The notes: a model not told the origin generated them from the sequence alone. Counted from the first letter of the stretch, positions 195 to 24,263 are shown. The stretch is 27,965 bases of DNA from Methanomassiliicoccaceae archaeon (GCA_031285205.1 JAITWO010000002.1:1-27965); one strand, 5' to 3'. Made by a program: numbers and translations.

Positions 195-1676
195 TTAATC
201 ACGCTTTGCACCGCAGATGTCGCAGTACTTCGCTTCCGGTGGGTTCTCGTCGTATCCGCATGTGTAACATTTGCGAGGTTGCAACTTCGCGCCGCAGCCC
301 TTGCACACTTTCAGATCGATCTGATTCTCGAGGCTGCACGCAGGACATATCAGCCCTTTGACACGTATCTTCTCCACCGCTGCCAACGTTGAATCGTCGC
401 ACTTCCTTTCCTCGTTGTACACACGCACCTCATACTCGCCCATCTTTCCGGAGACATCCTCCATCGGCACCCAGTTATCTCCTTTCTCCAATCTCTTCCG
501 TAAGATGTGCTGTGAGGGGTCTGCGCCGGCAGTGTACAGGCCGACGAACGCGCCGCCCTGGGCCATCCTGCCTGATACGCCTTTCACCGTGATCATCTGG
601 TAGCCCGCATGCTGACTTTTTTCTACGGAGACGGTGACCGCTGTCTCCACATCCGCCGTGACAGAAAATGCTGCACTGGCAATGAGTGTTGTATCGTCCA
701 TGCGGCCGCTGCTGAACATCCGGACCTCATGATCGCCGCCCTGCCATGGCGCTATGAATTTGACCTGGGTGTACCCTCCTGTCTGTACATCCTCCGGGTA
801 CTGCTTCTGCGTATGTTCACTGTGGGGTGCGCCCGTGGGCACGAGGATCGCCACCGCCCCTTCCTTCTTCATCTGCTGCGTCAGCCCGATGACGATCGCA
901 TGGATGGTCTCGCCCCCTTCATATTTACTCCCGGCCGATATGCTCACGCCTGAGTATGGTACTTTCATTCCCTGAGGTCCGGCCGGCCGTGCCGCGGCCG
1001 CAGGCTGTGGCGCTCCCTGCCCTTTTAACATGGCCGCATATTCCGGAGGAAGCGATGCCAGGTATTCCGGGGGGAACATGGCCGCATATTCCGGAGGGAT
1101 GGCGGAAGGCTGTTGCGCTCCCGGACCTGCGCCGACAGTGGGTTGGGGAGGGGGAGATTGTCCCATCTTTCCTCCGCACTCGCCGCAGAACGTCACTTTC
1201 GTCTTGTTCATGTAGCCGCATGACTGACACTCGTATTTTGACGGCCCCGGCTGCGGGGCCGGGGGCTGCATCGCTGCCTGGTTCTTCATTATGGCCATCT
1301 GTTCCGGCGGGATCATGGACATGTATTCCTTAGGGATCATGGACATGTAATCCTGAGGGACTGCATCCGGCTGTTGTGTTCCAGGACCTGCGAAGGCTGC
1401 GGACGGTGCCGCGGCAGCTCCCCGCTTGCTTCCGCACCCTCCGCAGAACGCCGCCGATGCGTTATTTGTGTGCCCGCACGCCGGGCATTTGGCGGGTTGC
1501 TGCGCATCCAGCTTTCCGCCGCATCCGCTGCAGAACCTTGCCCCCGGCGTGTTGGTGTGGCCGCATGACTGACATTTGGCCGAGGGCTGTTCGATCTTTC
1601 CGCCGCATCCGCTGCAGAACCTTGCCCCGTCTGTGTTGCTGTGCCCGCATGCGGAACAGGTCAGGCTCATTGTCAT
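195..1676 (-). CDS. Zinc-ribbon array protein (6 ribbons, PPEY-rich linkers, 2 beta-rich domains)
   Basis: 493-aa ORF with six Cys4 ribbons: CSACGHSNTDGARFCSGCG, CQSCGHTNTPGARFCSGCG, CPACGHTNNASAAFCGGCG, CQSCGYMNKTKVTFCGECG, CPACSLENQIDLKVCKGCG, CYTCGYDENPPEAKYCDICG. Two beta-rich domains (aa ~243-340 and ~346-440) are paralogous to those of 1681..2625. Only a 4-nt gap separates it from the upstream gene. No TM segment or signal peptide seen. Confidence 0.8.
   Translation of the reverse strand: MTMSLTCSACGHSNTDGARFCSGCGGKIEQPSAKCQSCGHTNTPGARFCSGCGGKLDAQQPAKCPACGHTNNASAAFCGGCGSKRGAAAAPSAAFAGPGTQQPDAVPQDYMSMIPKEYMSMIPPEQMAIMKNQAAMQPPAPQPGPSKYECQSCGYMNKTKVTFCGECGGKMGQSPPPQPTVGAGPGAQQPSAIPPEYAAMFPPEYLASLPPEYAAMLKGQGAPQPAAAARPAGPQGMKVPYSGVSISAGSKYEGGETIHAIVIGLTQQMKKEGAVAILVPTGAPHSEHTQKQYPEDVQTGGYTQVKFIAPWQGGDHEVRMFSSGRMDDTTLIASAAFSVTADVETAVTVSVEKSQHAGYQMITVKGVSGRMAQGGAFVGLYTAGADPSQHILRKRLEKGDNWVPMEDVSGKMGEYEVRVYNEERKCDDSTLAAVEKIRVKGLICPACSLENQIDLKVCKGCGAKLQPRKCYTCGYDENPPEAKYCDICGAKRD
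972..1367 (-). repeat. Low-complexity P/A/Q/M linker with tandem PPEY and EYMSMIP motifs, inside CDS 195..1676
   Basis: Protein aa ~104-235 contains DYMSMIPKEYMSMIPPEQMAIM and IPPEYAAMFPPEYLASLPPEYAAML. At DNA level there is an exact 23-nt direct repeat, aacatggccgcatattccggagg, at 1027-1049 and 1075-1097 (48-nt offset). A 16-nt repeat, ggatcatggacatgta, occurs at 1310-1325 and 1334-1349 (24-nt offset). Confidence 0.6.
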
Positions 1677-1680
1677 TCCC

Positions 1681-2625
1681 TCAGAGCTTTCCGCCGCAGG
1701 TCCCGCAGAACTTCAGGTCGGGCGGGTTGTCGGCACCGCATTCTTTGCATTTGCCGGTTGCCATTTTCGTGCCGCACTCGTTGCAGAACTTCGGGTCGGG
1801 CGGGTTCTCGTGGCCGCATTTCGGACATGCCGGGCCTTTTACAGAGAACTTCGCTCTAGCCACGATATCCGATTCATTGTACTCGCCGTTGTCGATCCTG
1901 AACAGACGCAGCTCGAAATCGCCGGTCTCCTCCGACAGGTACATGGAAACCTGGTTGTCCCCTGCCTGCAGACTCTGCCATGTGACGTATGACGAATTGT
2001 CGGCACCCACACGATACAGGCCCAGGAATGCGCGGTTGTGCTCCATCTTCTTGGACACGCCGTTCACTGTGAATATCGTTTCGGTGTTCGGCGAGCACAC
2101 CTTCTTATCCAGTATGATGGACAGCGGCGACTCCTTTTCCGCCGTCGTCGAGAACGCTGCGCTGGAAAGGAGTGTCGAGTCATCCGGAGAACCGCTGCGG
2201 AAGAACCGTACCTCGTAGTTCCCGGCCTCGAACGGCGCCATCAGTTCGATCCTGGCACTCCCTGTTGATTCAGGGTACCTCCAGTCCTGAGAATCATGAT
2301 GGGGCGCCCCGACCGACAATACGGTCGCAAAGGCACCGTCATCCAGCATGCGTTGCGTCACCCCTGCCATGGTTGCGATCACCGCATCGCCGCCCTCGTA
2401 AGAACTCTTCTCCAGAGTGATCGTGACGCTTGCCAGCTGCGCCTTGGCGTCCGCCGGAGGAAGTCCGCACTCGCCGCAGAACTTCGCCGCCATCTTGTTC
2501 ACGTGACCGCATGCCGGACATGTGTACGTTGTCGGTTGTTCTGTTTCCAGCTTTCCGCCGCACTCGCCACAGAACCTCATCGTGTCCTTGTTCTCGTGCC
2601 CACATGACCTGCATGTTATCGGCAT
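1681..2625 (-). CDS. Zinc-ribbon array protein (2 ribbons, 2 beta-rich domains, 2 ribbons); paralog of 195..1676
   Basis: 314-aa ORF with four ribbons: CRSCGHENKDTMRFCGECG, CPACGHVNKMAAKFCGECG, CPKCGHENPPDPKFCNECG, CKECGADNPPDLKFCGTCG. The central domains align with the neighbour, e.g. GGDAVIATMAGVTQRMLDDGAFATVLSVGAPH...GNYEVRFFRSGSPDDSTLLSSAAFS versus GGETIHAIVIGLTQQMKKEGAVAILVPTGAPH...GDHEVRMFSSGRMDDTTLIASAAFS. Confidence 0.8.
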   Translation of the reverse strand: MPITCRSCGHENKDTMRFCGECGGKLETEQPTTYTCPACGHVNKMAAKFCGECGLPPADAKAQLASVTITLEKSSYEGGDAVIATMAGVTQRMLDDGAFATVLSVGAPHHDSQDWRYPESTGSARIELMAPFEAGNYEVRFFRSGSPDDSTLLSSAAFSTTAEKESPLSIILDKKVCSPNTETIFTVNGVSKKMEHNRAFLGLYRVGADNSSYVTWQSLQAGDNQVSMYLSEETGDFELRLFRIDNGEYNESDIVARAKFSVKGPACPKCGHENPPDPKFCNECGTKMATGKCKECGADNPPDLKFCGTCGGKL

Positions 2626-2637
2626 TTACATTCCTCC

Positions 2638-3411
2638 TTAAACTCTGCCTCCGCAGCCTCCGCAGAACTTCGTTCCGGGATCGTTCTGGAAGCCGCATGC
2701 CGAGCATTTTCCGCTTGGCGGGGCCGGAGGTGCAGGAGGTGCCGCCTTCAGGTCCAGTCCGCAGTTGTTGCAGAAGCGGACGTTGGGAGAATTCTTTGCG
2801 CCGCACTTCGGGCAAGATGCCTGTTCCATGTTCGCCCCGCAGTTGTTGCAGAACTTACCGGTTCCCGCCTGTTTGCCGCACTGCGGGCATATGGTCGTCT
2901 TGCTCTCGATCTTTCCGTCCCATACGACGGCGGTGGCCGCCTTCTCGTCGATGTTGCGCTTCATGGCACCAGCCGCGGCCTTTGCCACGTAAACTTCCTG
3001 CCTGGGGGCGCATCCTGTGCACAGTCCCGCATCCTCGTTCCAGCACTGGTCGCAGACGTAGTTGTTATCTCCGGGGCATTTGTGGAAGTGCTTCTTCGAC
3101 TCGTTCTGTGCTTTCACGAACGCATTCTCGTGCTCCTTGTGCCACTCCGGCGTCATACCCTCGAAACGCTCCGAGTATATGCTCGTTGTATCCGACGCTG
3201 CGTTGGCCGCCGTGGCCGTACGGCCGCCCACAAGGCTCCCGCCTATCCTGGCCAGCCCGCCGAATAGCTTGCTTGCCTTCTTCTTCTTGAATGTCTCCGA
3301 TTCTATGAAACTTGATTTGTACCCGTCACCGCAGGCGTCGCAGTTAAATGTGAACTGGAAGCCGGCCTCGGTACTGTTGTCGTTGTAATTCTTTGTGAAT
3401 GCCTGAAGCAT
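2638..3411 (-). CDS. Zinc-ribbon protein (Cys-rich N-terminal domain plus 3 C-terminal ribbons)
   Basis: 257-aa ORF. C-terminal ribbons are CPQCGKQAGTGKFCNNCG, CPKCGAKNSPNVRFCNNCG and CSACGFQNDPGTKFCGGCG, separated by a PPAPPAPP linker. The N-terminal ~190 aa has further Cys clusters (FNCDACG; HKCPGDNNYVCDQCWNEDAGLCTGC). Gaps are 1 nt to the upstream gene and 12 nt to the downstream gene. Confidence 0.75.
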   Translation of the reverse strand: MLQAFTKNYNDNSTEAGFQFTFNCDACGDGYKSSFIESETFKKKKASKLFGGLARIGGSLVGGRTATAANAASDTTSIYSERFEGMTPEWHKEHENAFVKAQNESKKHFHKCPGDNNYVCDQCWNEDAGLCTGCAPRQEVYVAKAAAGAMKRNIDEKAATAVVWDGKIESKTTICPQCGKQAGTGKFCNNCGANMEQASCPKCGAKNSPNVRFCNNCGLDLKAAPPAPPAPPSGKCSACGFQNDPGTKFCGGCGGRV

Positions 3412-3412
3412 G

Positions 3413-3793
3413 TTACTTCATCTCCTTCTTGTACATCTTAATAAGTACTGATTCGCCTTTCTTGATCGCTTTGCCGCATACCGTGCACTTCGTCAGTTCA
3501 AAGAACTGAAGCTCCCCGCACCGCTTGTTCTCGCATTTCACCAACAGGGACCTCCCGCATGCTTCGCATTTCCCGGAACCGACGAACGTCTCTGCCTTGC
3601 AAAGCGGGCAGTTCACCGTCAGCTTCCTGCCGCATCCCGAGCACAGTAGGTTTCCTCTCTCGATCGGCTTCAGGCAGTTCGGGCAGATGAACCCGAATGG
3701 GGTCCTGCTTCCGCATTTGGCACAATATTTACTGTCCCCGTCTATCCTCTCCCCGCAGTGTATGCAGGGTTTGTTGTATGTTGACATAATCAT
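3413..3793 (-). CDS. Small multi-zinc-ribbon protein (4 ribbons), first gene of the operon
   Basis: The ORF track gives 3413..3856. I trim the start to ATG 3793 (MIMSTYNK...) or 3787 because CAGGAGAGA (Shine-Dalgarno-like) lies immediately upstream on the minus strand (3794-3802). Ribbons are CIHCGERIDGDSKYCAKCG, CPNCLKPIERGNLLCSGCG, CPLCKAETFVGSGKCEACG and CENKRCGELQFFELTKCTVCG. Confidence 0.7.
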   Translation of the reverse strand: MIMSTYNKPCIHCGERIDGDSKYCAKCGSRTPFGFICPNCLKPIERGNLLCSGCGRKLTVNCPLCKAETFVGSGKCEACGRSLLVKCENKRCGELQFFELTKCTVCGKAIKKGESVLIKMYKKEMK

Positions 3794-3973
3794 TCTCTCC
3801 TGTCTGTATCCTCTTCTTCCTAAATCACCATGGACGTGTCCGTCTCCTTCGGCCATTTATCTTTTACTGTAGGAAAGGCACCAGGACGGTATTAGTGATT
3901 CTCTGTTTATAAAAATATTGTATATAAGGAATGGCACACAAACAACAAAATACATCATGTTTATGAGGTATGC

Positions 3974-11339: not shown

Positions 11340-13853
11340 ATGGGTTACACAGAAGTCCCTGACACAGGGAAGATATTGGAGATCGCTAAGAAATATTATG
11401 AATGGGCGGAGCCGATGATCAAGGCCGGCAGGCCCCAGTTCAATAAGGCGGTCAACTGGAGCCCGAAGTTCGACGGTAAAAAGAAAGATCATAGGAAGGC
11501 CTCCTCCTTATCGTGCGATACCGCCATGGTGGGAACGCTCGGAGGGATGGGCACCATGACTGTGGCCCTGGCGTGCGCCGCGTTCGACCTGGCCTTCGAT
11601 ACCGTCAAGATATCGCAGAACCTTGGCTGCGCCATTGCGATATTCTGCGACAATAACGATGACCCTGACATCATCGCCAAAGAGAAGGAGATATACGAGG
11701 ATGCGGTGACGGTCCTTATCTATGCCCTCTCCCTATCAATGGTCGGTAGCATTCACACCGAAGCAAGCCTCGGTCCGCTTGTCGCCCTCGGCAATTTGTA
11801 TATGGATATGGAGAGGTACGAAGAGGCTAAGGAATTGTTCATGACCGCGCGCCGGATAGACGAATTGTACATGCCCGCACTGAACGGCCTCGCAGCATAC
11901 TACAAAGCAACGAACAAACCTCAGTTCGCCGTCATGATTAAGACCGCCGCGAAGAGCAACCCGACCACTCTCGGGAAGTCCCTGAACAAGATCGGTGAGA
12001 ACAACAAGAAGGCGGAAAAGATATTCAGAGAGGGGGCGGCCGCCAGTGACGAGGAACTTGAGAAAGAGATCGACAAGGCAGAGGAGATAGAGGCTCCCAA
12101 TTACGGGGACATCTTTGACGGCGTCGACCCGAAGAACGCCGAGAAGATGCGGAAGAACAGGAAGGATCTCAACAACAGGATGAAGATCAAGATCCCGAAC
12201 ATACACATACTCACTGCGTTCACGGACATCAACAAAGATAATCAAATCTCCGTCAAATGCGCCGCCGAAGCAGTATCTGATGAGCTCAAGCACCTGCAGA
12301 AATATATCAAGGCGTTATCTAGAGGGAGCGGGAACACGGCCGCGGACGCATTTGAGAATACCGGGATAGGTGATTTCAAGTTCATGGGCATGGACTTCCA
12401 TGAATTTATCAGGGATGCATCGAACAACCCTGCGAAATATGAGAACATGGATACTCGGGATGAGGTCCACCTCCGGACCGACAATCTGGACAAGTACATA
12501 AAAGAACTGAAGGACGGCCTCGGCGAGATAACTGCCGCCCGTCACGGCATGGAAGGAGGGGACAGATTCGGCAGAAAGTTCTCAAGGGCCGCCGCCAAGG
12601 CGAACCTGCTGTTATTCCCTTTCTCTCTGGACCCGTTGAAGTACGCCAATATGTGGGATGTGTTCATACAGCAGTGCAATATCCCGTTATATATCAAAAA
12701 GAAGGCCCTATTGGATGCATATATGATGGGCGTGATGAGAAAATCAAATGAAACGATAACGGACATACAGAGGAACTTTTCCAGAGAGTACGCGGAGATC
12801 CATGAGGCATACGACGCAAAGATGGAAGACCTTAAGGAAAGGTACGACAGAGAGGTGAAGGCATGCGGAGACAATTCTGGTTGCACTTCAGCGGCGGCCA
12901 AACGATATGAACTGAACCTGCACAAACTGCATCTGGAATATTATCCGCAGCTGAACCAGTGCACGAAGAGATACTGGCTCGAGGGAACGGCATGCGCCGC
13001 CATAATGTACGGGAAACTGGAAAGGAACATACCACGGATGTACAAGGAAGTGATGAAACATCTTGTGTACATCTCCGATGAGAAGGTGCGGGCCGAACAG
13101 GAGGACATGCTCGTTGGGGGCATAGCGTCAACCCTCACACATGCCATCGGCCTGGTGCTGAGTACGTACGGCGGAGGGGAGATACTAAGGATAGAGATGT
13201 GCGGATGCGACCCCGAAAGGATGGAACAGCTTACCAAGGAGCTGCAGAAAGAGAAGGAGGAGAAGGATGCCGAGATGCAGCAACGTCAGAAGGCGGCGGA
13301 GAACGCCTTTAAGAACGGCATCATAGATGAAAACTCCTCGTACTACAAGGACTATGTCAAAAAGTGGGAGTATGAGATCGACCTGGTCATTTTCAAATAC
13401 AGGTCCAATGATTATTTCACGACCGGGGATGTGAGCATCCCGACCCCGGTCGGCTCCATTGACGCTTCATCGTTCAGGAACAACATCACACAGGAGTCCA
13501 GAGTCAGTGCGGACGTTACGATCGGCGGGGAGATCGGGCCGGTGGAGCTCAAGGCCACTTTCGGGATCTCCGTCGCATGGGACGCGAACGGAAGGATGCA
13601 CCCGGAGGGATTCGACTTGCGGGCCGGACTTGAGGCGTCGACGGGCGTGGGTCCGCTGTCGGCCACGGCAGGCGTCTCGGCGTCCCTGGAGAGAGGCACG
13701 AAGGTGTATGGCGAGGTAACGTTAAGCGGGAACGATTATATCGATGAGATGAAGGAGCGGGCATTAGGGGAGGAGTTCGGAGGGCTGGCCCCCGAAATGG
13801 ACAACACCATCAAGCTGTGGACGGGGGACTACGTGATCACAGACAAGAATTAA
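11340..13853 (+). CDS. Large orphan protein, paralog A (837 aa): helical/TPR-like N-terminal part, coiled coil, beta-rich C-terminus
   Basis: Long ORF, collinear with 13938..16760. In the conserved block 13038-13118 versus 15678-15758 (MYKEVMKHLVYISDEKVRAEQED[M/I]LVG) I count 11 synonymous and 1 non-synonymous differences in 27 codons, which indicates purifying selection. TPR-like segment LVALGNLYMDMERYEEAKELFMTARRID. No catalytic, TM or signal motif recognised. Confidence 0.8.
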   Translation: MGYTEVPDTGKILEIAKKYYEWAEPMIKAGRPQFNKAVNWSPKFDGKKKDHRKASSLSCDTAMVGTLGGMGTMTVALACAAFDLAFDTVKISQNLGCAIAIFCDNNDDPDIIAKEKEIYEDAVTVLIYALSLSMVGSIHTEASLGPLVALGNLYMDMERYEEAKELFMTARRIDELYMPALNGLAAYYKATNKPQFAVMIKTAAKSNPTTLGKSLNKIGENNKKAEKIFREGAAASDEELEKEIDKAEEIEAPNYGDIFDGVDPKNAEKMRKNRKDLNNRMKIKIPNIHILTAFTDINKDNQISVKCAAEAVSDELKHLQKYIKALSRGSGNTAADAFENTGIGDFKFMGMDFHEFIRDASNNPAKYENMDTRDEVHLRTDNLDKYIKELKDGLGEITAARHGMEGGDRFGRKFSRAAAKANLLLFPFSLDPLKYANMWDVFIQQCNIPLYIKKKALLDAYMMGVMRKSNETITDIQRNFSREYAEIHEAYDAKMEDLKERYDREVKACGDNSGCTSAAAKRYELNLHKLHLEYYPQLNQCTKRYWLEGTACAAIMYGKLERNIPRMYKEVMKHLVYISDEKVRAEQEDMLVGGIASTLTHAIGLVLSTYGGGEILRIEMCGCDPERMEQLTKELQKEKEEKDAEMQQRQKAAENAFKNGIIDENSSYYKDYVKKWEYEIDLVIFKYRSNDYFTTGDVSIPTPVGSIDASSFRNNITQESRVSADVTIGGEIGPVELKATFGISVAWDANGRMHPEGFDLRAGLEASTGVGPLSATAGVSASLERGTKVYGEVTLSGNDYIDEMKERALGEEFGGLAPEMDNTIKLWTGDYVITDKN

Positions 13854-13937: not shown

Positions 13938-16760
13938 ATGGACGGCGCACTGACCCTCGGTAACGAGAGAATATTGAAGATCGCCAAAAAATATTATGAT
14001 TGGGCGAAGCCGATCATCTCCCTCGGCAAGAACGAGTTCAAAAAAGCTGTAGATTGGGTCCCGGAGTTCGACGGCAGGAAAAATGATGTCGAGAAGGCCG
14101 GTACATTATCATTCGATACCGCAATGCTCGGAACCTTTCCCGGGACGGGGACCATAACTGTTGCCTTTGCGTGCGCCGCATTCGACCTCGCCCCCGAAAG
14201 CGTGGTCATGTCACAGAATCTGGGCTCTGCTATCGCACTGTTCTGCGACAACAGTCCCGACCTCAGCATCAAAGAGAAAAAGAAAGAGATATACGAGGAT
14301 GCGGCGGCGGTCCTGATCTATGCCGTCTCTTTGTCATTATCTGAAGACATGTACACTGAGAAAAGCCTCGGACCGCTGGTGGCCCTCGGCAATCTGTTCT
14401 TGGATATGGAGAAGTACGAAGAAGCGAAGCATCTGTTCACGACCGCACGCAGACTGGACGAAACATACATGCCGGCGGTGGAGGGCCTTGCGGCGTATTA
14501 TAAGGCTGTGAAGAAGCCTCAGCTTGCCGGGATGGTCCGTGAGGGTGCGAAGAAGAACCCCACCGGCTGCGGGAGATCGGCCAATGAGATCGATAAGAAT
14601 GTCAAAAAGGCCACCGAGATATCACAGAAAGGGGATGCCAACGAGGAGGAGATGGAAAAGGATATGGATAAAGCCGAAACGGTGGAGGCACCCAATTACG
14701 GCGATCTCTTTGACAGCATCGACCAGGCGACCGCCGCGAAGATCAGGAACAACAGGAAGGAACTGAACAACAGGATGGTCATCACCGTCCCGAACCTCGA
14801 CATACTTTTTCCGTTCACGGATATCACCGAAGATAATCAGATCTCGGTCAAATCTGCCGTCGCTGCAGTAGCTGAGGAAATACCTAAATTGATCAAATAC
14901 ATGAAAAGGCTCCCGATAGGAGCAGCGCACAGGGATGCGGACATACTCGAGAATACGGGGATCGGCGATTTTTACGTCAGGGGCATGAAATTTCATGACT
15001 TTATGCGTGATGCGGCGAACAACCCCCAAAAATATGAAGACAGTAAAATCAACGCAGAAGGCAAAATACGGACGGACAATGCCAATAAATTCATAAAGGA
15101 TATAAAAGACGGCATCGCTGAGACCACTGCCGCCCGTCACGGCATGGAGGGTGGGGACCGATTTGGAAAGAACCTGATGAGGACCGCCGCGAAGGCGGAA
15201 GCGGTGCTCTTCCCGCTGTCCCTGAATCCGTTCAAATATGCTAACGCATGGGATATCCTCCTCCAGCAGTACAATGCCATGCCCCTGATCAGAAAAAGAA
15301 CACTGCTTTTCGGATATATGGCCGAGATACTAAGGAAAAGATCGAAAATATTATTTGAAGTACAACGGAATTATCACAGAGAGTACGGTGAGATCAATGA
15401 CATATTCAAAAGAGAATTGGACGACCTTAAGGAAAGGTACCAAAAACAGATAGACATCATAAACAAAATGATAAGTGACTGTGATGATCAAGGATGCGGA
15501 CGTTGCAAGAGCTTATCAAAGCGGATAGATGATCTGTCCGATCAACATGAAGTGGATAAACATAAGTTGCATTTGAAATACTACCCGCAGCTCAATCAAT
15601 GCACGAAGAGATTCTGGCTTGAAGGTACCGGGGTCGCTATCGTAATGTACAAGAAACTGGAAAGGAACGCACCGCGGATGTACAAAGAGGTGATGAAGCA
15701 CCTCGTGTACATCTCCGACGAGAAAGTACGTGCGGAGCAGGAGGACATACTCGTTGGGACCATAGCGCAGAGTATCGCAAGCGCCATAGGGCTGGTCCTG
15801 GGGGCATACGGCATGGGAGAGATACTCAGGATCGAGCAGTGCGGATGCGACTTCCAAGCGACGGATGAGCTCGAAGAGAGACTGAAGAAGGAGAAGAAGG
15901 AGAAGGATTATGAGATGCTCATGCGCCAGAAGGCGGCACGGGACTCATTCAAGAGCGGTGCGGTGGATGAGAACTCTGCGTTCTACAAGAACTATCTCAA
16001 ACAGTGGGAATACTCGTTCGATGTCGGCTTTTTCAAATATAAGGTCAACGACCACTTCACCACGACCCATCTGAACATAGATCTCAAGCTTGGATCCTTC
16101 GACTACTCATCCTTTCAAAGCAATATCACGAAGGCAGGCAGTGTGAAAGCTGACCTCACTCTCAAATTGGAGAAACAGGGCGTGGATGTGAAGGGTGAGG
16201 CCACATTCGGCTTCACGTATGTCTGGGACAAGAACGGGAATCCTCATCCGGACGGTTTTGACCTGCGTGCCGGTCTTAAAGCAACGGCGAGCTTGGGGCC
16301 GATCGAGACTGAGATCGGCATATCTTCATCCGTTCGGGAGGGTTTCAACGCGACTGCCGGGGCAAAGGTCTCAGGTGAGCAAGGGCCGGTCAGTGCCGAG
16401 GTCGGTGTGACGGCATCCACTAAGGACGGCGTTGACGCGAATGCCGAATTAGTAGTTTCAGGAGAGTATGGGCCGGCCACGGGCGATGCAAAAGTATCAG
16501 TGTCCACTAAGGACGGCGTTGACGCGAGTGTCAGTGCCGAGGTTTCCGGCAGCAAAGGTCCCCTCCAGGGCGAGGCAAAGGCGTCAGCATCCCTCCAGGG
16601 AGGTGTGAAGGCGTCCGCCGAGGCCAAGATGAGCGGGAACGAATATATTGATGCGCTGAAGGAGGCGGCCTTAGGAGAGACGCTTGCAGAGAACATCTCT
16701 TTGCCAAATTTTGACCGTGAACTATGGGGCGGCGAGTACTCCTCCAAGGGCGATGAGTGA
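13938..16760 (+). CDS. Large orphan protein, paralog B (940 aa), with expanded C-terminal 29-aa repeats
   Basis: Collinear with paralog A. Shared blocks include ILxIAKKYYxWAxP, DTAMxGT, ACAAFDLA, NYGDxFD, ENTGIGDF, AARHGMEGGDRFG, YPQLNQCTKRxWLEGT, GEILRIExCGCD, DENSxxYKxYxKxWEY and GFDLRAGL. It is about 100 aa longer because of the repeats at 16371-16631. Confidence 0.8.
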   Translation: MDGALTLGNERILKIAKKYYDWAKPIISLGKNEFKKAVDWVPEFDGRKNDVEKAGTLSFDTAMLGTFPGTGTITVAFACAAFDLAPESVVMSQNLGSAIALFCDNSPDLSIKEKKKEIYEDAAAVLIYAVSLSLSEDMYTEKSLGPLVALGNLFLDMEKYEEAKHLFTTARRLDETYMPAVEGLAAYYKAVKKPQLAGMVREGAKKNPTGCGRSANEIDKNVKKATEISQKGDANEEEMEKDMDKAETVEAPNYGDLFDSIDQATAAKIRNNRKELNNRMVITVPNLDILFPFTDITEDNQISVKSAVAAVAEEIPKLIKYMKRLPIGAAHRDADILENTGIGDFYVRGMKFHDFMRDAANNPQKYEDSKINAEGKIRTDNANKFIKDIKDGIAETTAARHGMEGGDRFGKNLMRTAAKAEAVLFPLSLNPFKYANAWDILLQQYNAMPLIRKRTLLFGYMAEILRKRSKILFEVQRNYHREYGEINDIFKRELDDLKERYQKQIDIINKMISDCDDQGCGRCKSLSKRIDDLSDQHEVDKHKLHLKYYPQLNQCTKRFWLEGTGVAIVMYKKLERNAPRMYKEVMKHLVYISDEKVRAEQEDILVGTIAQSIASAIGLVLGAYGMGEILRIEQCGCDFQATDELEERLKKEKKEKDYEMLMRQKAARDSFKSGAVDENSAFYKNYLKQWEYSFDVGFFKYKVNDHFTTTHLNIDLKLGSFDYSSFQSNITKAGSVKADLTLKLEKQGVDVKGEATFGFTYVWDKNGNPHPDGFDLRAGLKATASLGPIETEIGISSSVREGFNATAGAKVSGEQGPVSAEVGVTASTKDGVDANAELVVSGEYGPATGDAKVSVSTKDGVDASVSAEVSGSKGPLQGEAKASASLQGGVKASAEAKMSGNEYIDALKEAALGETLAENISLPNFDRELWGGEYSSKGDE
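16371..16631 (+). repeat. Three in-frame 87-nt (29-aa) tandem repeats in the paralog-B C-terminus
   Basis: The units are SGEQGPVSAEVGVTASTKDGVDANAELVV, SGEYGPATGDAKVSVSTKDGVDASVSAEV and SGSKGPLQGEAKASASLQGGVKASAEAKM. An exact 25-nt core, tccactaaggacggcgttgacgcga, occurs at 16416-16440 and 16503-16527 (87-nt offset). Confidence 0.65.
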
Positions 16761-21389: not shown

Positions 21390-21925
21390 TGCCGTCGATC
21401 GATTATATCATAGATGCGGTTAAAGACGCTGTCGCCGCCGTCGACCCGAAAGCGGTGGATGAACTGATAGATAATATCATACACTCCAAGACCGTCTTCG
21501 TGTTCGGAGTGGGGAGGTCGGGGCTGGCGGGGCAGTTCTTCTGCGTCAGATTGGTCCAGATGGGCCTGGATGTGCATTTTGTCGGTGAGATGACGACGCC
21601 GATAATAACCAAGGATGACCTTACGATACTCATCTCCGGTACCGGAAATACGATGTCGGCCGTTCAGACGGCGAACATAGCCAGACGCATCGGTTCTAAG
21701 GTCATGGCGGTCACCGCCCGGGCTGATACGAAACTTGCGATAGCATCCGATTCGGTCATTCTGCTTCCGGAGGCCAGGGATAAAGAGAGATCAAAATATG
21801 CGCCGCTCGGCACCATATTTGAAAATGCGGCCGTCCTTTTCCTGGACAGCATAGTACCGATGATAATGGAACGCCTTGGGCTCACGGAATCTGACATGAG
21901 GAAGCGTCACGCCATCTGGGTGTGA
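21389..21925 (+). CDS. hxlB: 6-phospho-3-hexuloisomerase (PHI, SIS domain)
   Basis: VFVFGVGRSGLAGQFFCVRLVQMGLDVHFVGEMTTP...DLTILISGTGNT...KYAPLGTIFENAAVLFLD...RH matches archaeal PHI (MJ1247-type, as I recall that sequence) along the whole length. Confidence 0.85.
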   Translation: MPSIDYIIDAVKDAVAAVDPKAVDELIDNIIHSKTVFVFGVGRSGLAGQFFCVRLVQMGLDVHFVGEMTTPIITKDDLTILISGTGNTMSAVQTANIARRIGSKVMAVTARADTKLAIASDSVILLPEARDKERSKYAPLGTIFENAAVLFLDSIVPMIMERLGLTESDMRKRHAIWV

Positions 21926-22425
21926 TCCTCCAAGACCACCATCGATGCTTCCGTTGTGCCGTCAGCTGAGCCTTTGAATACCTTCATCTCTTCCTTCATC
22001 GGGTCTATGACCATCGCGAACCCCGTTTCTCCGAACGCCGCCTTATGTGTGCTCTTATCGGTCTCTGACATGAAGCACCCTATCCCCAGATGAGAATGGT
22101 ACCATCCTACTATCACATACTCGAAATCGAGGTTGTCCAGTGCATCGAACAGCGTCACCATGTCATCAGGGTCGAAACGCACGCTTACCTCGTCCGATAT
22201 GAGCGCCGACGTGACCGCTTTGCTCACTGTTGCGTAATACCCGCCGTCATCCCTGTACACATGCCCCGCCAGGAGTCCCATGACCTCCGCGTTCTCATTC
22301 ATCCCTTTCTCAGCGTGGTCAAGCATGTCGCATATCGCCCCCTCTGAGACAAAGATGTCGGCATTCACCGCCCTTCTGCGTTCGGGTATGTCCGCGGCCG
22401 TGTGCTGTGTTATGAGTGGCATCAT
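21907..22425 (-). CDS. JAB/MPN+ (JAMM) metalloprotease, Rpn11-like deubiquitylase candidate
   Basis: Glu in NAEVMGLLAG and the complete JAMM motif H-S-H-LGIGCFM-S-ET-D (H-x-H-x7-S-x2-D, 22057-22098). ATGA overlap with the E2 stop (22422-22425). Confidence 0.85.
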   Translation of the reverse strand: MMPLITQHTAADIPERRRAVNADIFVSEGAICDMLDHAEKGMNENAEVMGLLAGHVYRDDGGYYATVSKAVTSALISDEVSVRFDPDDMVTLFDALDNLDFEYVIVGWYHSHLGIGCFMSETDKSTHKAAFGETGFAMVIDPMKEEMKVFKGSADGTTEASMVVLEDHTQMA

Positions 22426-22910
22426 TTGCTCCCGAAGCTCACGTACGCATTAATCTTTGTCTCGTTGTCCATATAGAACCTTGATGATTCCATACATATC
22501 TCAAGACCGAACGGGTTCGATATGTTCGGACTTCCCACAAGATTCTCCACTGCCTTCATGAATGACAGCAGCGTGGAGCCGAATGACCACTTATCAAGCA
22601 GTTTTATGCAGACGTACCCTCCGTCCTCAGGCGGCATGATGTTCGGATGGAATATCGGCGTCTCCCACCTTGCCCTCGGCTTCTCGAAGGGATATTCCTC
22701 ATTTATCACCACTTTGTACCTGTGGTCCTTTATCTGCACCACCTCATCATCCGTCTTAGCGTATGCGGGAACATTGGTCATGTTCACGGTTATCTCTATC
22801 GGAAATGTCACCTTGTCCGGGTCGAACCGTATGTCCGACCCTATGTAGCCGGAGCACCTCTCCAGCTCATTGGTCAGTCTTTTTATCAGCACCGGTCGCG
22901 GAAGCCCCAA
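22422..22910 (-). CDS. UBC-fold ubiquitin-conjugating enzyme (E2)
   Basis: N-terminal helix RLTNELERC, PFEKPRARWETPIFHPNI (HPN at 22641-22649), catalytic-type Cys in DGGYVCIKLLDKW (Cys101, codon 22608-22610), then SPNISNPFG. The order and spacing match eukaryotic E2 core signatures. The ATG directly abuts the Ubl stop. Confidence 0.85.
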   Translation of the reverse strand: MGLPRPVLIKRLTNELERCSGYIGSDIRFDPDKVTFPIEITVNMTNVPAYAKTDDEVVQIKDHRYKVVINEEYPFEKPRARWETPIFHPNIMPPEDGGYVCIKLLDKWSFGSTLLSFMKAVENLVGSPNISNPFGLEICMESSRFYMDNETKINAYVSFGSK

Positions 22911-23150
22911 TCAGCCACCCTCCGGGTCCGGAAGAAGCTCCAGGACATCATCGTTGAGGATGTTCGCCTCCATCACAGTGTCTGTTGCCCTCAGCAGCGA
23001 TTTCCCTTTTCTGAGCACGTACGCCCTCGGATCCTTCTTCCAGAACTCCGCGGCGCTCTCTATTATATCATATACAGTCTCTTTCGGCCCGAGGTCCATC
23101 TTCAGTGTCGCGCCGAGCGTTGCGTTCTTTACCAAAACGTGTATCCCCAT
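22911..23150 (-). CDS. Ubiquitin-like beta-grasp protein ending in Gly-Gly-stop
   Basis: 79 aa: MGIHVLVKNATLGATLKMDLGPKETVYDIIESAAEFWKKDPRAYVLRKGKSLLRATDTVMEANILNDDVLELLPDPEGG*. The length, the strand/helix alternation and the terminal GG (22914-22919) immediately before the stop are ubiquitin/SAMP-like. It sits between the E1 and E2 genes. Confidence 0.75.
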   Translation of the reverse strand: MGIHVLVKNATLGATLKMDLGPKETVYDIIESAAEFWKKDPRAYVLRKGKSLLRATDTVMEANILNDDVLELLPDPEGG

Positions 23151-23152
23151 TC

Positions 23153-23923
23153 TTACTCCTCCTCATGATTCGCACATCTGTCATCCTTCTTTATCTCCAA
23201 TACGATCGTTTCACCGGACATCCCGTCATAGAACGCCGCGTTCCTGATGCATATGTCCTCCCTGCCGGACGCTATCTTGACCGCCTCCCGTATCTGCATG
23301 GCGGCTATCGCTGACGTTGTTGTTATCTCGGCGGCCATCTTCGGAACGTAAAAGACCGATCCGTTGCCGGTGCAGCTGAACCTTGTTTCCGCGATACCGT
23401 AATGCGACCTGTTCATGGAGCACTGAAGGCACGGCCCGTCCGGGAGGACGACCTGCACTTTACCGTACATCCCGTCCGTGCCTCCGTCCACGTACGGTAT
23501 CCTGTGATAACAGGCATGAGCATTCACGTGGAGCCTTGCAGATATATTGTCAACGCACCCTAAAATCATACTGAATTCATCCCAGTCGCCGATATCCTGT
23601 GCGAGTGTGCGCCTTGGTGTTATCGTCACCTCATGATCAAGTTCTGATGCACGCATCGCCAGTATATCGGATTTCATGCCTTCTTTTACATCCGATCCTC
23701 TGAAGAAGACGCATCTGTTGAGATTTGATGTTACGACGGAATCATTGTCCGCTATCGTGATATCCCTGAACCCGGACAGCACAAGGCACTTCACCGCCTC
23801 GTTCCCCAGGGCGCCCGCTCCGACGACAAGACATCTGGCCCTTCCGATCTTATCGATATTCACCCAATCGATCCTCTTCGATCTGTCGAAACGGTCCATG
23901 TCGTATTCCTTGGCTCTGATCAT
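23153..23923 (-). CDS. E1-like ubiquitin-activating enzyme (ThiF/MoeB/UBA family)
   Basis: RFDRS...IGRARCLVVGAGALGNEAVK (GxGxxG at 23804-23821), ITIADNDSVVTSNLNR, C-x2-C (CLQC) and a second Cys pair region. Start trimmed from the ORF-track 24163 to ATG 23923. The extension overlaps the convergently readable gene at 24054 and crosses an A/T-rich promoter-like stretch. TATTATAC lies exactly 30 nt upstream of 23923. Confidence 0.85.
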   Translation of the reverse strand: MIRAKEYDMDRFDRSKRIDWVNIDKIGRARCLVVGAGALGNEAVKCLVLSGFRDITIADNDSVVTSNLNRCVFFRGSDVKEGMKSDILAMRASELDHEVTITPRRTLAQDIGDWDEFSMILGCVDNISARLHVNAHACYHRIPYVDGGTDGMYGKVQVVLPDGPCLQCSMNRSHYGIAETRFSCTGNGSVFYVPKMAAEITTTSAIAAMQIREAVKIASGREDICIRNAAFYDGMSGETIVLEIKKDDRCANHEEE

Positions 23924-23945: not shown

Positions 23946-23953
23946 GTATAATA
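23946..23953 (-). promoter_or_regulatory. TATA-like box (TATTATAC on minus strand) 30 nt upstream of the E1 ATG
   Basis: It lies within the A/T-rich 23941-23990 divergent intergenic region. No Shine-Dalgarno sequence lies between the box and ATG 23923, which gives a leaderless geometry. Confidence 0.4.
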
Positions 23954-24053: not shown

Positions 24054-24263
24054 ATGACCAGCCTTCCCGAGCATGGACACTGTGAGAACTGCGGCGACCC
24101 CGTACCGTTCGGCCAACACTTCTGCGATGACGATTGTTCCAAAGAATACAATACGGACATCAAAGAAGCAAAAAGGCTGGATAACAGGTTCTACATCATC
24201 ATGGCGGCTGTGCTCAGTGCTGTCGCTGTCGCCGCCGCCCTTGTCAAGATATATGTTCTCTGA
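24054..24263 (+). CDS. Small Zn-ribbon protein with C-terminal TM helix (DUF2116-like)
   Basis: HGHCENCGDPVPFGQHFCDDDCSKEY, then a basic stretch, then FYIIMAAVLSAVAVAAALVKIYVL. The pattern H-x-H-C-x2-CG...FC-x3-C followed by a TM anchor matches my memory of the archaeal DUF2116 family. Confidence 0.6.
   Translation: MTSLPEHGHCENCGDPVPFGQHFCDDDCSKEYNTDIKEAKRLDNRFYIIMAAVLSAVAVAAALVKIYVL

Follow-up and report, generated by a model that had tools for sequence, protein, structure and literature searches.

[quoted passage not shown] The question is raised by four adjacent genes in a 27,965-nt window (the whole stretch of DNA analysed) from a Methanomassiliicoccales (Thermoplasmata) methanogen, whose closest relatives come from termite guts. 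A preliminary description read them as a complete cassette of an E1, a GG-ended Ubl, a UBC-type E2 and a JAMM protease, and domain searches, structure prediction, PDB comparison and comparative genomics support that composition. On the basis of sequence and of analogy with characterised systems, we consider it likely that these genes are a vertically inherited chromosomal operon whose products attach the Ubl covalently.

Gene organization and genomic context

The four minus-strand reading frames claimed in the preliminary description are all present (Table 1), as are the motifs it quoted for E1, Ubl, E2 and JAB. The 2-nt gap between E1 (stop TAA, 23155..23153) and Ubl (ATG at 23150) was confirmed, as was the ATGA at 22425..22422 that is common to the E2 stop and the JAB start. 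The Ubl stop (TGA, 22913..22911) directly adjoins the E2 start at 22910 as described, but the E2 start codon is TTG and not ATG; it is backed by the conserved homologue N-terminus MGLP.. The E1 start is likewise backed by orthologue N-termini (MIS(A/V)KEYD), and an alternative start at Met9 (23899) was rejected because that Met is unconserved in orthologues. A Shine-Dalgarno-like motif (GAGGAGG) lies 5 nt upstream of the Ubl start, and GGAGGGTGG, formed from the PEGG codons of Ubl, is an SD-like motif for E2. Abutting or overlapping stops and starts of this kind, with SD-like motifs, would couple the translation of the four genes. At its 3' end the JAMM gene overlaps a convergent SIS/PHI gene by 19 nt.

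Table 1 Features of the Ubl cassette and its putative promoter
Feature	Coordinates	Strand	Description
E1	23923..23153	minus	ThiF 2e-41, 256 aa
Ubl	23150..22911	minus	79 aa, C-terminal PDPEGG-stop; AlphaFold beta-grasp
E2, UBC-type	22910..22422	minus	UQ_con 8e-13, 162 aa, TTG start
JAMM protease, Rpn11-like	22425..21907	minus	JAB 1e-14, 172 aa
Putative archaeal TATA box TATTATAC	23953..23946	minus	30 nt upstream of E1 ATG

The TATA-like box reported upstream of E1 is also present, and an equivalent TTTATA-type box is kept at approximately -32..-24 in orthologous loci (L001, L004, L005, L008, L015, L018 and L020). A promoter function of TATTATAC is putative; its distance from the E1 ATG suggests an operon transcript with a very short leader or none, starting about 25 nt downstream of the box. 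GC and GC3 of the cassette match the neighbouring values, no T5 run occurs within it, and its composition is native.

A motif scan for the E2 signature had matches in 243 species genomes. The top 80 of these all belong to Methanomassiliicoccales/Thermoplasmata, and about 75 of the 80 keep the order E1-Ubl-E2-JAB, far beyond chance. Across the 80 related archaeal genomes examined the cassette occupies the same chromosomal spot, by genes for SIS/PHI, AP_endonuc_2 and ribosomal proteins, and this position is shared by the order and by Ca. Sysuiplasma superficiale. The latter genome has the same macro-synteny, with the cassette adjoining the same AP-endonuclease-2-like gene and the L18e-L13-S9 operon. 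Gene fusions further link the cassette parts to one another, either joining Ubl to E2 with GG at the joint (P0157, P0200, P0206) or E2 to JAMM (P0147, P0166).

No RING ORF was found in or beside the cassette, either in the window or in the inspected orthologous loci. The earlier view of an E3-less cassette, placed between housekeeping genes in a methanogen-like archaeon, is borne out by comparative genomics. Two neighbouring genes were considered as E3s and rejected. One, a possible cryptic E3, encodes a DUF2116 treble-clef Zn-ribbon/TM protein (24054..24263, divergent from E1), which stays with folP when folP is elsewhere (L012, L035) and is missing upstream of E1 in Methanomassiliicoccus-type loci; both patterns argue against an E3 role. 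The other, an additional gene that separates JAB from PHI in L064-type loci, encodes a 392-aa signal-peptide/TM protein without relevant features.

Predicted activities of the four proteins

Profile searches of the kind the preliminary description proposed placed E1, E2 and JAMM above the Pfam gathering cut-offs (ThiF, UQ_con and JAB, respectively). The E1, which contains RFDRS, GAGALGNE and CLQC, matches PF00899 (2e-41) over residues 22-250 of 256, so that no room is left for further domains, and its orthologues are of similar length (about 250-260 aa). It is a minimal ThiF/MoeB-type enzyme with a single adenylation domain and without a ubiquitin-fold domain (UFD), a separate Cys domain or a rhodanese domain. 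Its best PDB matches are the active adenylation domain of eukaryotic Uba1 (4.9e-21), then NAE/UBA3 (1.7e-17) and MoeB (4e-14). Residues kept in at least 95% of 74 orthologues are R14, G35-E42, D59, D61, S66/N67/L68/R70, K84, D125/N126, C165/C168, the crossover-loop Cys C184, and C250/H253.

The Ubl, which ends in ...LLPDPEGG-stop, had no significant family match by sequence; Pfam gave just a sub-threshold TUG-UBL1 hit (0.012) and no ThiS/MoaD match. The AlphaFold2 model (pLDDT 91.1) has the order beta-beta-alpha-beta-beta, and the Foldseek PDB top matches are ubiquitin, NEDD8, SUMO, Hub1 and C. subterraneum Ub (CsUb), all with prob 1.00 and query TM of 0.79-0.88 (0.86-0.88 for CsUb). The beta-grasp fold proposed earlier is therefore supported, and according to this confident model the protein is a ubiquitin-type modifier.

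These two proteins bear on the possibility that the locus is a sulfur-carrier system (MoaD/MoeB, ThiS/ThiF or SAMP/UbaA dual use) in which the Ubl is thiocarboxylated and not conjugated through E2. The uses under such a reading would be molybdopterin, thiamine or tRNA thiolation. The size of the E1 is that of MoeB, it scores on the NCBIfam ThiF, MoeB and UbaA models, and its Zn-binding CxxC and crossover-loop Cys are typical of MoeB/Uba4-type enzymes. However, the scores fall far under every equivalog cut-off (ThiF, 102.6 versus 275 bits; MoeB, 83 versus 266; UbaA, 68 versus 450), the rhodanese domain is absent, and the structural neighbours of the Ubl are ubiquitin, NEDD8 and SUMO. In addition, a UBC E2 and a JAMM with apparently intact catalytic residues are co-conserved with the Ubl, predicted to be translationally coupled to it, and in relatives fused within the cassette. 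A standard MoaD/MoeB operon, the outcome that the preliminary description had set against its own reading, is not supported by the NCBIfam cut-offs or the Ubl structure, and we regard a sulfur-carrier system as improbable. The E1 and Ubl of a conjugation cassette may still have a second, SAMP-style role in sulfur transfer.

The E2 contains FHPNI, Cys101 and SPNISNP, with the HPN triad at residues 88-90. PF00179 (UQ_con, 8.4e-13) matches it at residues 63-144 only, and phmmer aligned it to Ubc9 (4.3e-9) with HPN and Cys placed on FHPN and Cys93. For the AlphaFold2 model (pLDDT 89.1) the top 50 Foldseek matches are all eukaryotic E2s (prob 1.00) at modest TM (0.45-0.66), which together with the partial UQ_con match indicates a divergent N-terminal third. 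At least 95% of 79 orthologues share H88, P89, N90, C101, W108, P128 and N129. Pfam, AlphaFold2 and Foldseek favour the UBC fold, and phmmer the alignment of HPN and Cys with an E2 active site.

The JAMM protein has the catalytic Glu (Glu47) and the intact H110-x-H112-x7-S120-x2-D123 of the MPN+ motif, as the preliminary description stated. It matches PF01398 (1.3e-14), and its best PDB matches are PSMD14/Rpn11 (5e-12), C. subterraneum Rpn11 (CsRpn11, 2e-9) and then CSN5. Against the haloarchaeal desampylase equivalog of NCBIfam it scored 47.5 bits, below the cut-off of 130. In at least 95% of 75 orthologues, E47, H110, H112, C117, S120 and D123 are unchanged.

At least 95% of 76 Ubl orthologues contain PDPEGG. 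Tails of 1-10 residues follow the GG in 53 of 78 orthologous Ubls, and 24 terminate at GG; the invariant PDPEGG combined with variable tails marks GG as the functional end. The earlier statement that no processing is needed thus holds for the source genome's Ubl and not for its tailed relatives, for which the JAMM is probably both the processing enzyme and the deconjugase. In one locus (L063), loss of HxH from the JAMM coincides with a Ubl that terminates exactly at GG.

Proposed reaction cycle and cellular role

The conserved residues are consistent with a functional E1-E2 thioester cascade, for which experimental precedents exist in Caldiarchaeum (PMC5654768, PMC6043591) and in Bil (10.1101/2023.09.26.559546). 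In the source genome the Ubl would emerge from translation with its GG already free; in most relatives a tail of 1-10 residues would have to come off first, the most plausible enzyme being the co-encoded JAMM, as CsRpn11 does this for CsUb and BilC for BilA. The MoeB-sized E1, presumably a homodimer with a structural zinc bound by Cys165/Cys168/Cys250/His253, would adenylate Ubl Gly79 with ATP-Mg and then load the Ubl on the conserved crossover-loop Cys184. The Ubl would be handed to Cys101 of E2, where Asn90 of HPN is expected to stabilise the oxyanion. From the conserved residues and by analogy, we infer both the E1~Ubl thioester and the recruitment of E2 by an E1 that has neither UFD nor Cys domain. 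In such an E1 the E2 must dock straight on the adenylation domain, as in BilD:BilB. The E2 would then place Ubl on lysines of cellular proteins without a cassette-encoded E3, with targets chosen either by the E2 directly (Ubc9-like or Bil-like) or via an unlinked E3, and the Rpn11-like JAMM would remove the tag.

The acceptor might instead be something other than a protein lysine, such as a membrane lipid head group (Atg8/Atg3-like), a sugar or a metabolite. This idea draws on the conservation of an E3-less cassette back-to-back with a SIS/PHI sugar-phosphate isomerase gene (73 of 80 loci) and a xylose-isomerase-like TIM-barrel gene (67 of 80). Since these neighbours are encoded on the other strand, the association may reflect no more than synteny. 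Moreover, the E2 has the canonical HPN/Cys site for lysine aminolysis and matches Ubc9, Rad6 and Ube2S better than Atg3/Atg10, and the protease is an Rpn11-like JAMM isopeptidase. We thus think a non-lysine acceptor unlikely, at about the level of the sulfur-carrier system.

We consider a housekeeping function, in regulation or proteostasis, the most likely role of the cassette. The preliminary description had also allowed a defence role as in BilABCD, in which a structural protein of an invading virus would be tagged. Bil is likewise assembled from these four components without an E3, and its DUB processes the Ubl in advance (10.1101/2023.09.26.559546); in a PADLOC scan for Bil/CBASS membership the E1 gave weak matches to E1-E2/BilD models (best 6.8e-9; BilD 1.6e-6). 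Against this, PADLOC had no match to the other three proteins (Ubl, E2, JAB), even with the threshold relaxed to E<=1. The E2 is unrelated to E. aridi BilB by BLASTP, hhalign of the E2 family against that protein gave a probability of 0.4%, and the canonical HPN of the E2 differs from the Cys/His of BilB. An IMG/VR scan with the E2 alignment detected no relatives among 2.9 million viral contigs. The fixed synteny beside housekeeping genes (about 75 of 80 genomes, and Sysuiplasma), the native composition and the PADLOC and viral negatives together argue for housekeeping rather than defence, which we consider very improbable, slightly more so than either of the other two alternatives.

Relation to known systems and significance

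The cassette belongs to a known kind of system, and its parts are already annotated; the E2 orthologues, for example, carry the name 'ubiquitin-conjugating enzyme E2'. No publication devoted to the Methanomassiliicoccales cassette emerged from a literature search, which returned passing mentions: a Methanomassiliicoccus JAMM is touched on in PMC4453063, a Thermoplasmatota E2 clade appears in 10.1101/2023.07.25.550441, and E3-less Ub-E1-E2-JAMM operons are described in PMC6043591.

The Caldiarchaeum/Asgard operon (Nunoura 2011, PMC3082918; Hennell James 2017, PMC5654768; Fuchs 2018, PMC6043591) comprises Ub, E1, E2, small-RING E3 and Rpn11. It shares with the present cassette a GG-ended tag of the ubiquitin-type beta-grasp fold (CsUb ranks among the top structural matches), a UBC E2 with HPN and Cys, and an Rpn11-like JAMM (2e-9 to CsRpn11). 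The tail that most Ubl orthologues carry resembles the 9-aa pro-peptide of CsUb, which CsRpn11 cuts off. Here, however, the RING E3 is missing from the window and the inspected loci, the JAMM gene lies within the operon, and the host is from a euryarchaeal methanogen lineage and not TACK or Asgard. Cluster I/II E1s have an inactive Rossmann domain, a Cys domain and a C-terminal Ubl/UFD (the multidomain form is described in the PMC5654768 supplement), in contrast to the 256-aa single adenylation domain.

A closer likeness is to the E3-less Ub-E1-E2-JAMM operons of the JAMM-3 group (Fuchs 2018, PMC6043591) or Cluster III (Hennell James 2017 supplement), with Ubl, UFD-less E1, E2 and JAB, no E3, and a JAMM nearer Rpn11/CSN5 than JAMM-1/2. 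The E2 and E1 here differ in scoring best on eukaryotic proteins, not on bacterial defence-type ones. The available parts of the text of Fuchs 2018 and Hennell James 2017 do not name Methanomassiliicoccales, so that the likeness is by description; 'Methanomassiliicocc' is also absent from the PMC5654768 supplement.

Type I/II BilABCD likewise combines E1, E2, Ubl and JAMM DUB without an E3; its E1 has no UFD, its Ubl is structurally ubiquitin-like, and its DUB trims residues past the conserved Gly. The differences are an E2 without sequence relationship to BilB, three of four proteins without a PADLOC match, a 256-aa E1 where BilD has IAD, AAD and CYS domains (about 450-position model), and a fixed core-genome location where Bil occupies sporadic defence islands. 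Sampylation (SAMP1-3 / UbaA / HvJAMM1) also pairs an archaeal GG-ended Ubl with a MoeB-type E1 bearing a crossover-loop Cys and a JAMM deconjugase, but lacks an E2, whereas a conserved UBC E2 is an integral part of the present cassette. Its E1 and JAMM score far under the UbaA and desampylase equivalog cut-offs, and the Ubl is nearer ubiquitin than MoaD/ThiS.

Among solved structures, the E2 has its best sequence match in Ubc9 proteins of the SUMO pathway (4e-9), a likeness only marginally above that to Ubc13, Rad6 and UbcH10, and which may be meaningless. Ubc9 can modify targets without an E3, and this offers a functional model for the E3-less cassette. Unlike in the SUMO pathway, the Ubl is not SUMO-like by sequence and the E1 is not of the heterodimeric Aos1/Uba2 type.

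A broader and doubtful proposal is that an entire euryarchaeal lineage uses UBC-E2 tagging as a vertically inherited housekeeping pathway of ancient origin that needs no E3. This lineage may comprise Methanomassiliicoccales and Sysuiplasmatales, with related cassettes in Theionarchaea-like genomes, and the cassette may have stood beside the L18e-L13-S9-RpoN operon since before those orders split. If so, E2 cascades would be no speciality of the TACK/Asgard-eukaryote line, and a distinct minimal form, in which a MoeB-sized E1 charges E2 without a UFD, would have its own cellular targets, open to study in cultivable gut methanogens.

If active, the cassette would be among the simplest E2-containing ubiquitin-type cascades (256-aa E1, 79-aa tag, 162-aa E2, 172-aa isopeptidase and no E3). 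It bears on how a UFD-less E1 passes Ubl to a canonical UBC E2, which substrates an E3-less archaeal E2 modifies, and whether the origin of E2-based tagging predates the Asgard/TACK lineage or lies outside it. The order includes cultivable methanogens of human and animal guts, such as Methanomassiliicoccus luminyensis, which makes these questions directly testable. Given the conserved PE|GG end (Glu77), GluC digestion should leave a standard K-GG remnant, so that existing di-Gly proteomics reagents are applicable.

Gene organization, expression signals and protein identities

The preliminary description had placed genes for an E1, a ubiquitin-like protein (Ubl), an E2 and a JAMM protease (JAB) in one coupled minus-strand unit, and all four reading frames were present at exactly the positions it claimed. 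The junctions were likewise as described: 2 nt separate the E1 stop from the Ubl ATG, the Ubl TGA is immediately contiguous with the E2 start, and the end of E2 overlaps the start of JAB in an ATGA. The E2 start codon, reported as ATG, is actually TTG, and initiation at this position is confirmed by the N-terminus MGLP(R/K)PVL conserved in homologues. The E1 start is supported because orthologues begin with MIS(A/V)KEYD and an internal Met is not conserved.

Positions of the cassette and of other features discussed in the text (window unless another locus is named)
Feature	Position	Strand	Description
Zinc-ribbon genes	195-3856	minus	Four consecutive genes; 493, 314, 257 and 147 aa
837-aa ORF	11340-13853	plus	Sub-threshold TPR matches only in Pfam
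940-aa ORF	13938-16760	plus	No Pfam match
S9	18911
L13	19314
L18e	19738
ORF372	20271
PHI	21389	plus	SIS/PHI sugar-phosphate isomerase
JAB-PHI overlap	21907-21925		Convergent 3' ends, 19 nt
JAB (JAMM)	22425..21907	minus	172 aa; Pfam JAB (1.3e-14)
E2	22910..22422	minus	162 aa; TTG start; Pfam UQ_con (8.4e-13)
SD-like motif of E2	22911-22925		Within the Ubl 3' end
Ubl	23150..22911	minus	79 aa; C-terminus LELLPDPEGG-stop
E1	23923..23153	minus	256 aa; Pfam ThiF (2e-41)
TATA-like box	23953..23946		TATTATAC
DUF2116 protein	24054-24263	plus	69 aa; C-terminal TM helix
MPN-like protein	L063 6449-6880		143 aa; MAG UBA593
E2-JAMM fusion P0147	L081 460-2508		Metagenomic relative
Ubl-E2 fusion P0157	L082 259-1008		Metagenomic relative
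P0176 and RING neighbour	L085 383-5684		227 aa and 1459 aa

The TATA-like box noted 30 nt upstream of the E1 ATG was recovered, and orthologous loci have a box of the TTTATA type equally far upstream; the position of this putative element suggests that the operon mRNA would be leaderless or have a short leader. No internal T5 run was found on the sense strand of the cassette. The Ubl gene is preceded by the SD-like motif GAGGAGG, and the SD-like motif of the TTG-initiated E2 (GGAGGGTGG) is made up by the codons for the invariant Ubl C-terminal P-E-G-G (CCGGAGGGTGGC); one set of bases encodes the reactive end of Ubl and also holds the likely ribosome-binding site of E2. The convergent 3' ends of JAB and PHI overlap in the window by 19 nt, which might allow antisense or termination coupling, and a similar overlap, with about 13 nt of coding match, occurs in the closest loci (L001-L006).

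Among solved structures, the E2 was most similar to Ubc9 (4e-9) in an alignment that brings FHPN and the catalytic Cys into register, and the top 50 structural neighbours of its confident AlphaFold2 model (pLDDT 89.1) were all eukaryotic E2s (prob 1.00, TM 0.45-0.66). Together with the UQ_con match, these results bear out the proposed UBC-type E2, although its N-terminal third is divergent, given the modest TM values and a Pfam match confined to residues 63-144. The sole Pfam match of the Ubl, TUG-UBL1, was sub-threshold; its likewise confident model (pLDDT 91.1) is a beta-grasp fold, and at query TM values of 0.79-0.88 its top 50 PDB neighbours were ubiquitin, NEDD8, SUMO, Hub1 and Caldiarchaeum Ub. 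The JAMM protein was closest to PSMD14/Rpn11 (5e-12), followed by C. subterraneum Rpn11 (2e-9) and CSN5, and scored under the cut-off of the NCBIfam desampylase model. The E1 best matched the active adenylation domain of Uba1 (5e-21), along with NAE, with MoeB/ThiF behind (4e-14). The E1 fell under every cut-off of the NCBIfam equivalog models ThiF, MoeB, UbaA and MoeZ, and there is no rhodanese domain. Together with the ubiquitin-like character of the Ubl and the conservation of E2 and JAMM, this disfavours a role purely in sulfur carriage.

At least 95% of the orthologues (74-79 per protein) retain, in the E1, R14, GAGALGNE (35-42), D59, D61, SNLxR (66-70), K84, D125/N126, C165/C168, C184 (in the crossover loop, 'CTG'), TTT201-203 and C250/H253. 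The corresponding residues are H88, P89, N90, C101, W108, P128 and N129 in the E2, E47, H110, H112, C117, S120 and D123 in the JAMM protein, and W37, G49, L53 and P74-D-P-E-G-G79 in the Ubl.

Ubl tails and gene fusions

The Ubl had been described as made conjugation-ready, which holds for the window, where it ends at GG-stop, but not for most relatives. Across 78 orthologous Ubls, 24 terminate at GG-stop and 38 have a single residue beyond GG (R, A, S, F, V, I, N or C). In another 15 the tail runs to 2-10 residues (e.g., GGCRWGSPRRFC, GGFSGPPY and GGGNGTA), and the last sequence is disrupted. A GG that does not vary, with a freely varying tail behind it, is the hallmark of a pro-Ubl. The tails parallel the CsUb pro-peptide of Caldiarchaeum, which is cut off by CsRpn11 (PMC5654768, PMC6043591), and the BilA tail of the bacterial Bil system, which is cut off by BilC (10.1101/2023.09.26.559546). 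In one MAG (UBA593), the gene in the JAB position encodes an MPN-like protein whose HxH...S..D metal site is gone (GRYRAEPRSGC replaces GWYHSHLGIGC), and the Ubl of the same genome stops exactly at GG, a single case supporting processing by JAMM.

When 1.84 billion representatives were searched with a profile, 3219 matched at E<=1e-3, 25 of them at E<=1e-30. These relatives include naturally fused Ubl-E2 proteins in which GG marks the joint (P0157, ...LIPDPTGG|ANLPEDLL..., P0200 and P0206; joint motif PDP(T/V)GG), other Ubl-E2 fusions without GG, and E2-JAMM fusions that measure 534-682 aa and have long tails of low complexity (P0147 and P0166). In a Theionarchaea-related cassette the genes run JAB-E1-Ubl-E2, and the Ubl has a 19-aa tail beyond GG. 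The four functions are tied together by such fusions and rearrangements. Between the P0157 fusion gene and the JAB gene lies a gene for a 213-aa TM protein of no assigned function. P0176, a Ubl-E2 fusion without GG, adjoins a protein with a Prok-RING_1 domain, and the pair may represent an E2/E3 of a different, non-cleavable architecture.

Distribution and inheritance of the locus

Over 200 close homologues of the E2 were found, and wherever a source is named it is Methanomassiliicoccaceae, Methanomethylophilaceae, Ca. Methanoplasma termitum, Methanomassiliicoccus sp. or Thermoplasmatales archaea. Several homologues are already annotated as 'ubiquitin-conjugating enzyme E2'. With one genome per GTDB species, the E2 signature IFHPNIMxP was found in 243 genomes. 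The best 80 of these are all Methanomassiliicoccales/Thermoplasmata except two bacterial-named bins, and the nearest of them (72-80% identity) are termite-gut MAGs. By tblastn with the window proteins, these 80 loci contained E2 (n = 80), Ubl (n = 78), JAB (n = 77) and E1 (n = 75), as well as the convergent SIS/PHI (n = 73) and an AP_endonuc_2-like gene (n = 67). The order E1-Ubl-E2-JAB on a single strand was invariable among the matched genes, and absent genes were mostly where contigs end.

The bins labelled Eggerthellaceae (L068) and Anaerovoracaceae (L075) carry the full locus in archaeal synteny (LarA-CCG-folP-cassette-PHI-ORF372) and are most likely mis-binned Methanomethylophilaceae contigs. 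Two 'uncultured Thermoplasmatales' loci (L073 and L074) keep Ubl-E2-JAB, with transketolase genes upstream in place of E1 and a class I LysRS gene downstream; their E1 is presumably encoded elsewhere. The DUF2116 'probable treble clef' zinc-ribbon protein, divergent from E1 and adjacent in 38 of the 80 loci, was rejected as a cassette component because it follows folP when folP is elsewhere (L012 and L035).

Ca. Sysuiplasma superficiale, from a different Thermoplasmata lineage, has the same cassette (Ubl ending ILPDPEGG-stop) adjoining the AP_endonuc_2 gene and the L18e-L13-S9-RpoN genes; the window counterparts of this neighbourhood are S9, L13, L18e, ORF372 and PHI. In GC and GC3 the four genes match their neighbours, and 2.9 million viral contigs yielded no relative. 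Given this synteny, native composition and lack of viral relatives, the cassette is most likely a core locus of long standing that has been inherited vertically, rather than part of a mobile island. This fixed location also disfavours anti-phage defence of the Bil type, for which PADLOC gave nothing for three of the four proteins and hhalign against BilB a probability of 0.4%. A housekeeping use is favoured by how the cassette is distributed, by its synteny and native composition, and by its absence from viruses and from defence models.

Predicted conjugation pathway and known systems

Judging from the genes, the cassette probably constitutes a working Ubl-conjugation cascade. The operon would be co-transcribed with coupled translation, and the Ubl would be ready-made in the window genome and trimmed by JAMM in most relatives. 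The MoeB-sized E1 would adenylate the Ubl and move it onto Cys184, from which it would be handed to Cys101 of the E2 and joined to lysines without a cassette-encoded E3, and the Rpn11-like JAMM would take it off again. As the E1 lacks a UFD, the E2 would have to contact the adenylation domain directly, and the BilD:BilB structure offers a model for such binding. An acceptor other than protein is little supported, the sole point in its favour being that the sugar-isomerase genes beside the cassette, encoded on the other strand, are conserved.

The cassette is predicted to work like the Caldiarchaeum/Asgard ubiquitylation operons, but lacks two of their defining features, a RING E3 in the operon and a multidomain E1 with UFD. 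By its described features, rather than by member lists, it fits among the more loosely defined E3-less Ub-E1-E2-JAMM operons ('JAMM-3', PMC6043591; 'Cluster III', PMC5654768 supplement). Searches of a literature library for an account or test of the Methanomassiliicoccales cassette found only passing mentions: one identifies the M. luminyensis JAMM with Rpn11 by orthology (PMC4453063), the other concerns a deep-branching Thermoplasmatota E2 clade (10.1101/2023.07.25.550441). The cassette is real and was read correctly, but it is less novel than first held, being of a known kind with parts already annotated or mentioned. What is added here is its conservation, probably by vertical descent, at a fixed locus across the 80 related genomes examined, the pro-Ubl tails in most relatives, and the natural Ubl-E2 and E2-JAMM fusions.

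Elsewhere in the window, two long ORFs have little or no Pfam assignment, and the four zinc-ribbon genes, each with a double-zinc-ribbon domain (DZR/Zn_Ribbon_1/DUF7577), form an apparent tandem paralogue array about 18 kb from the cassette.
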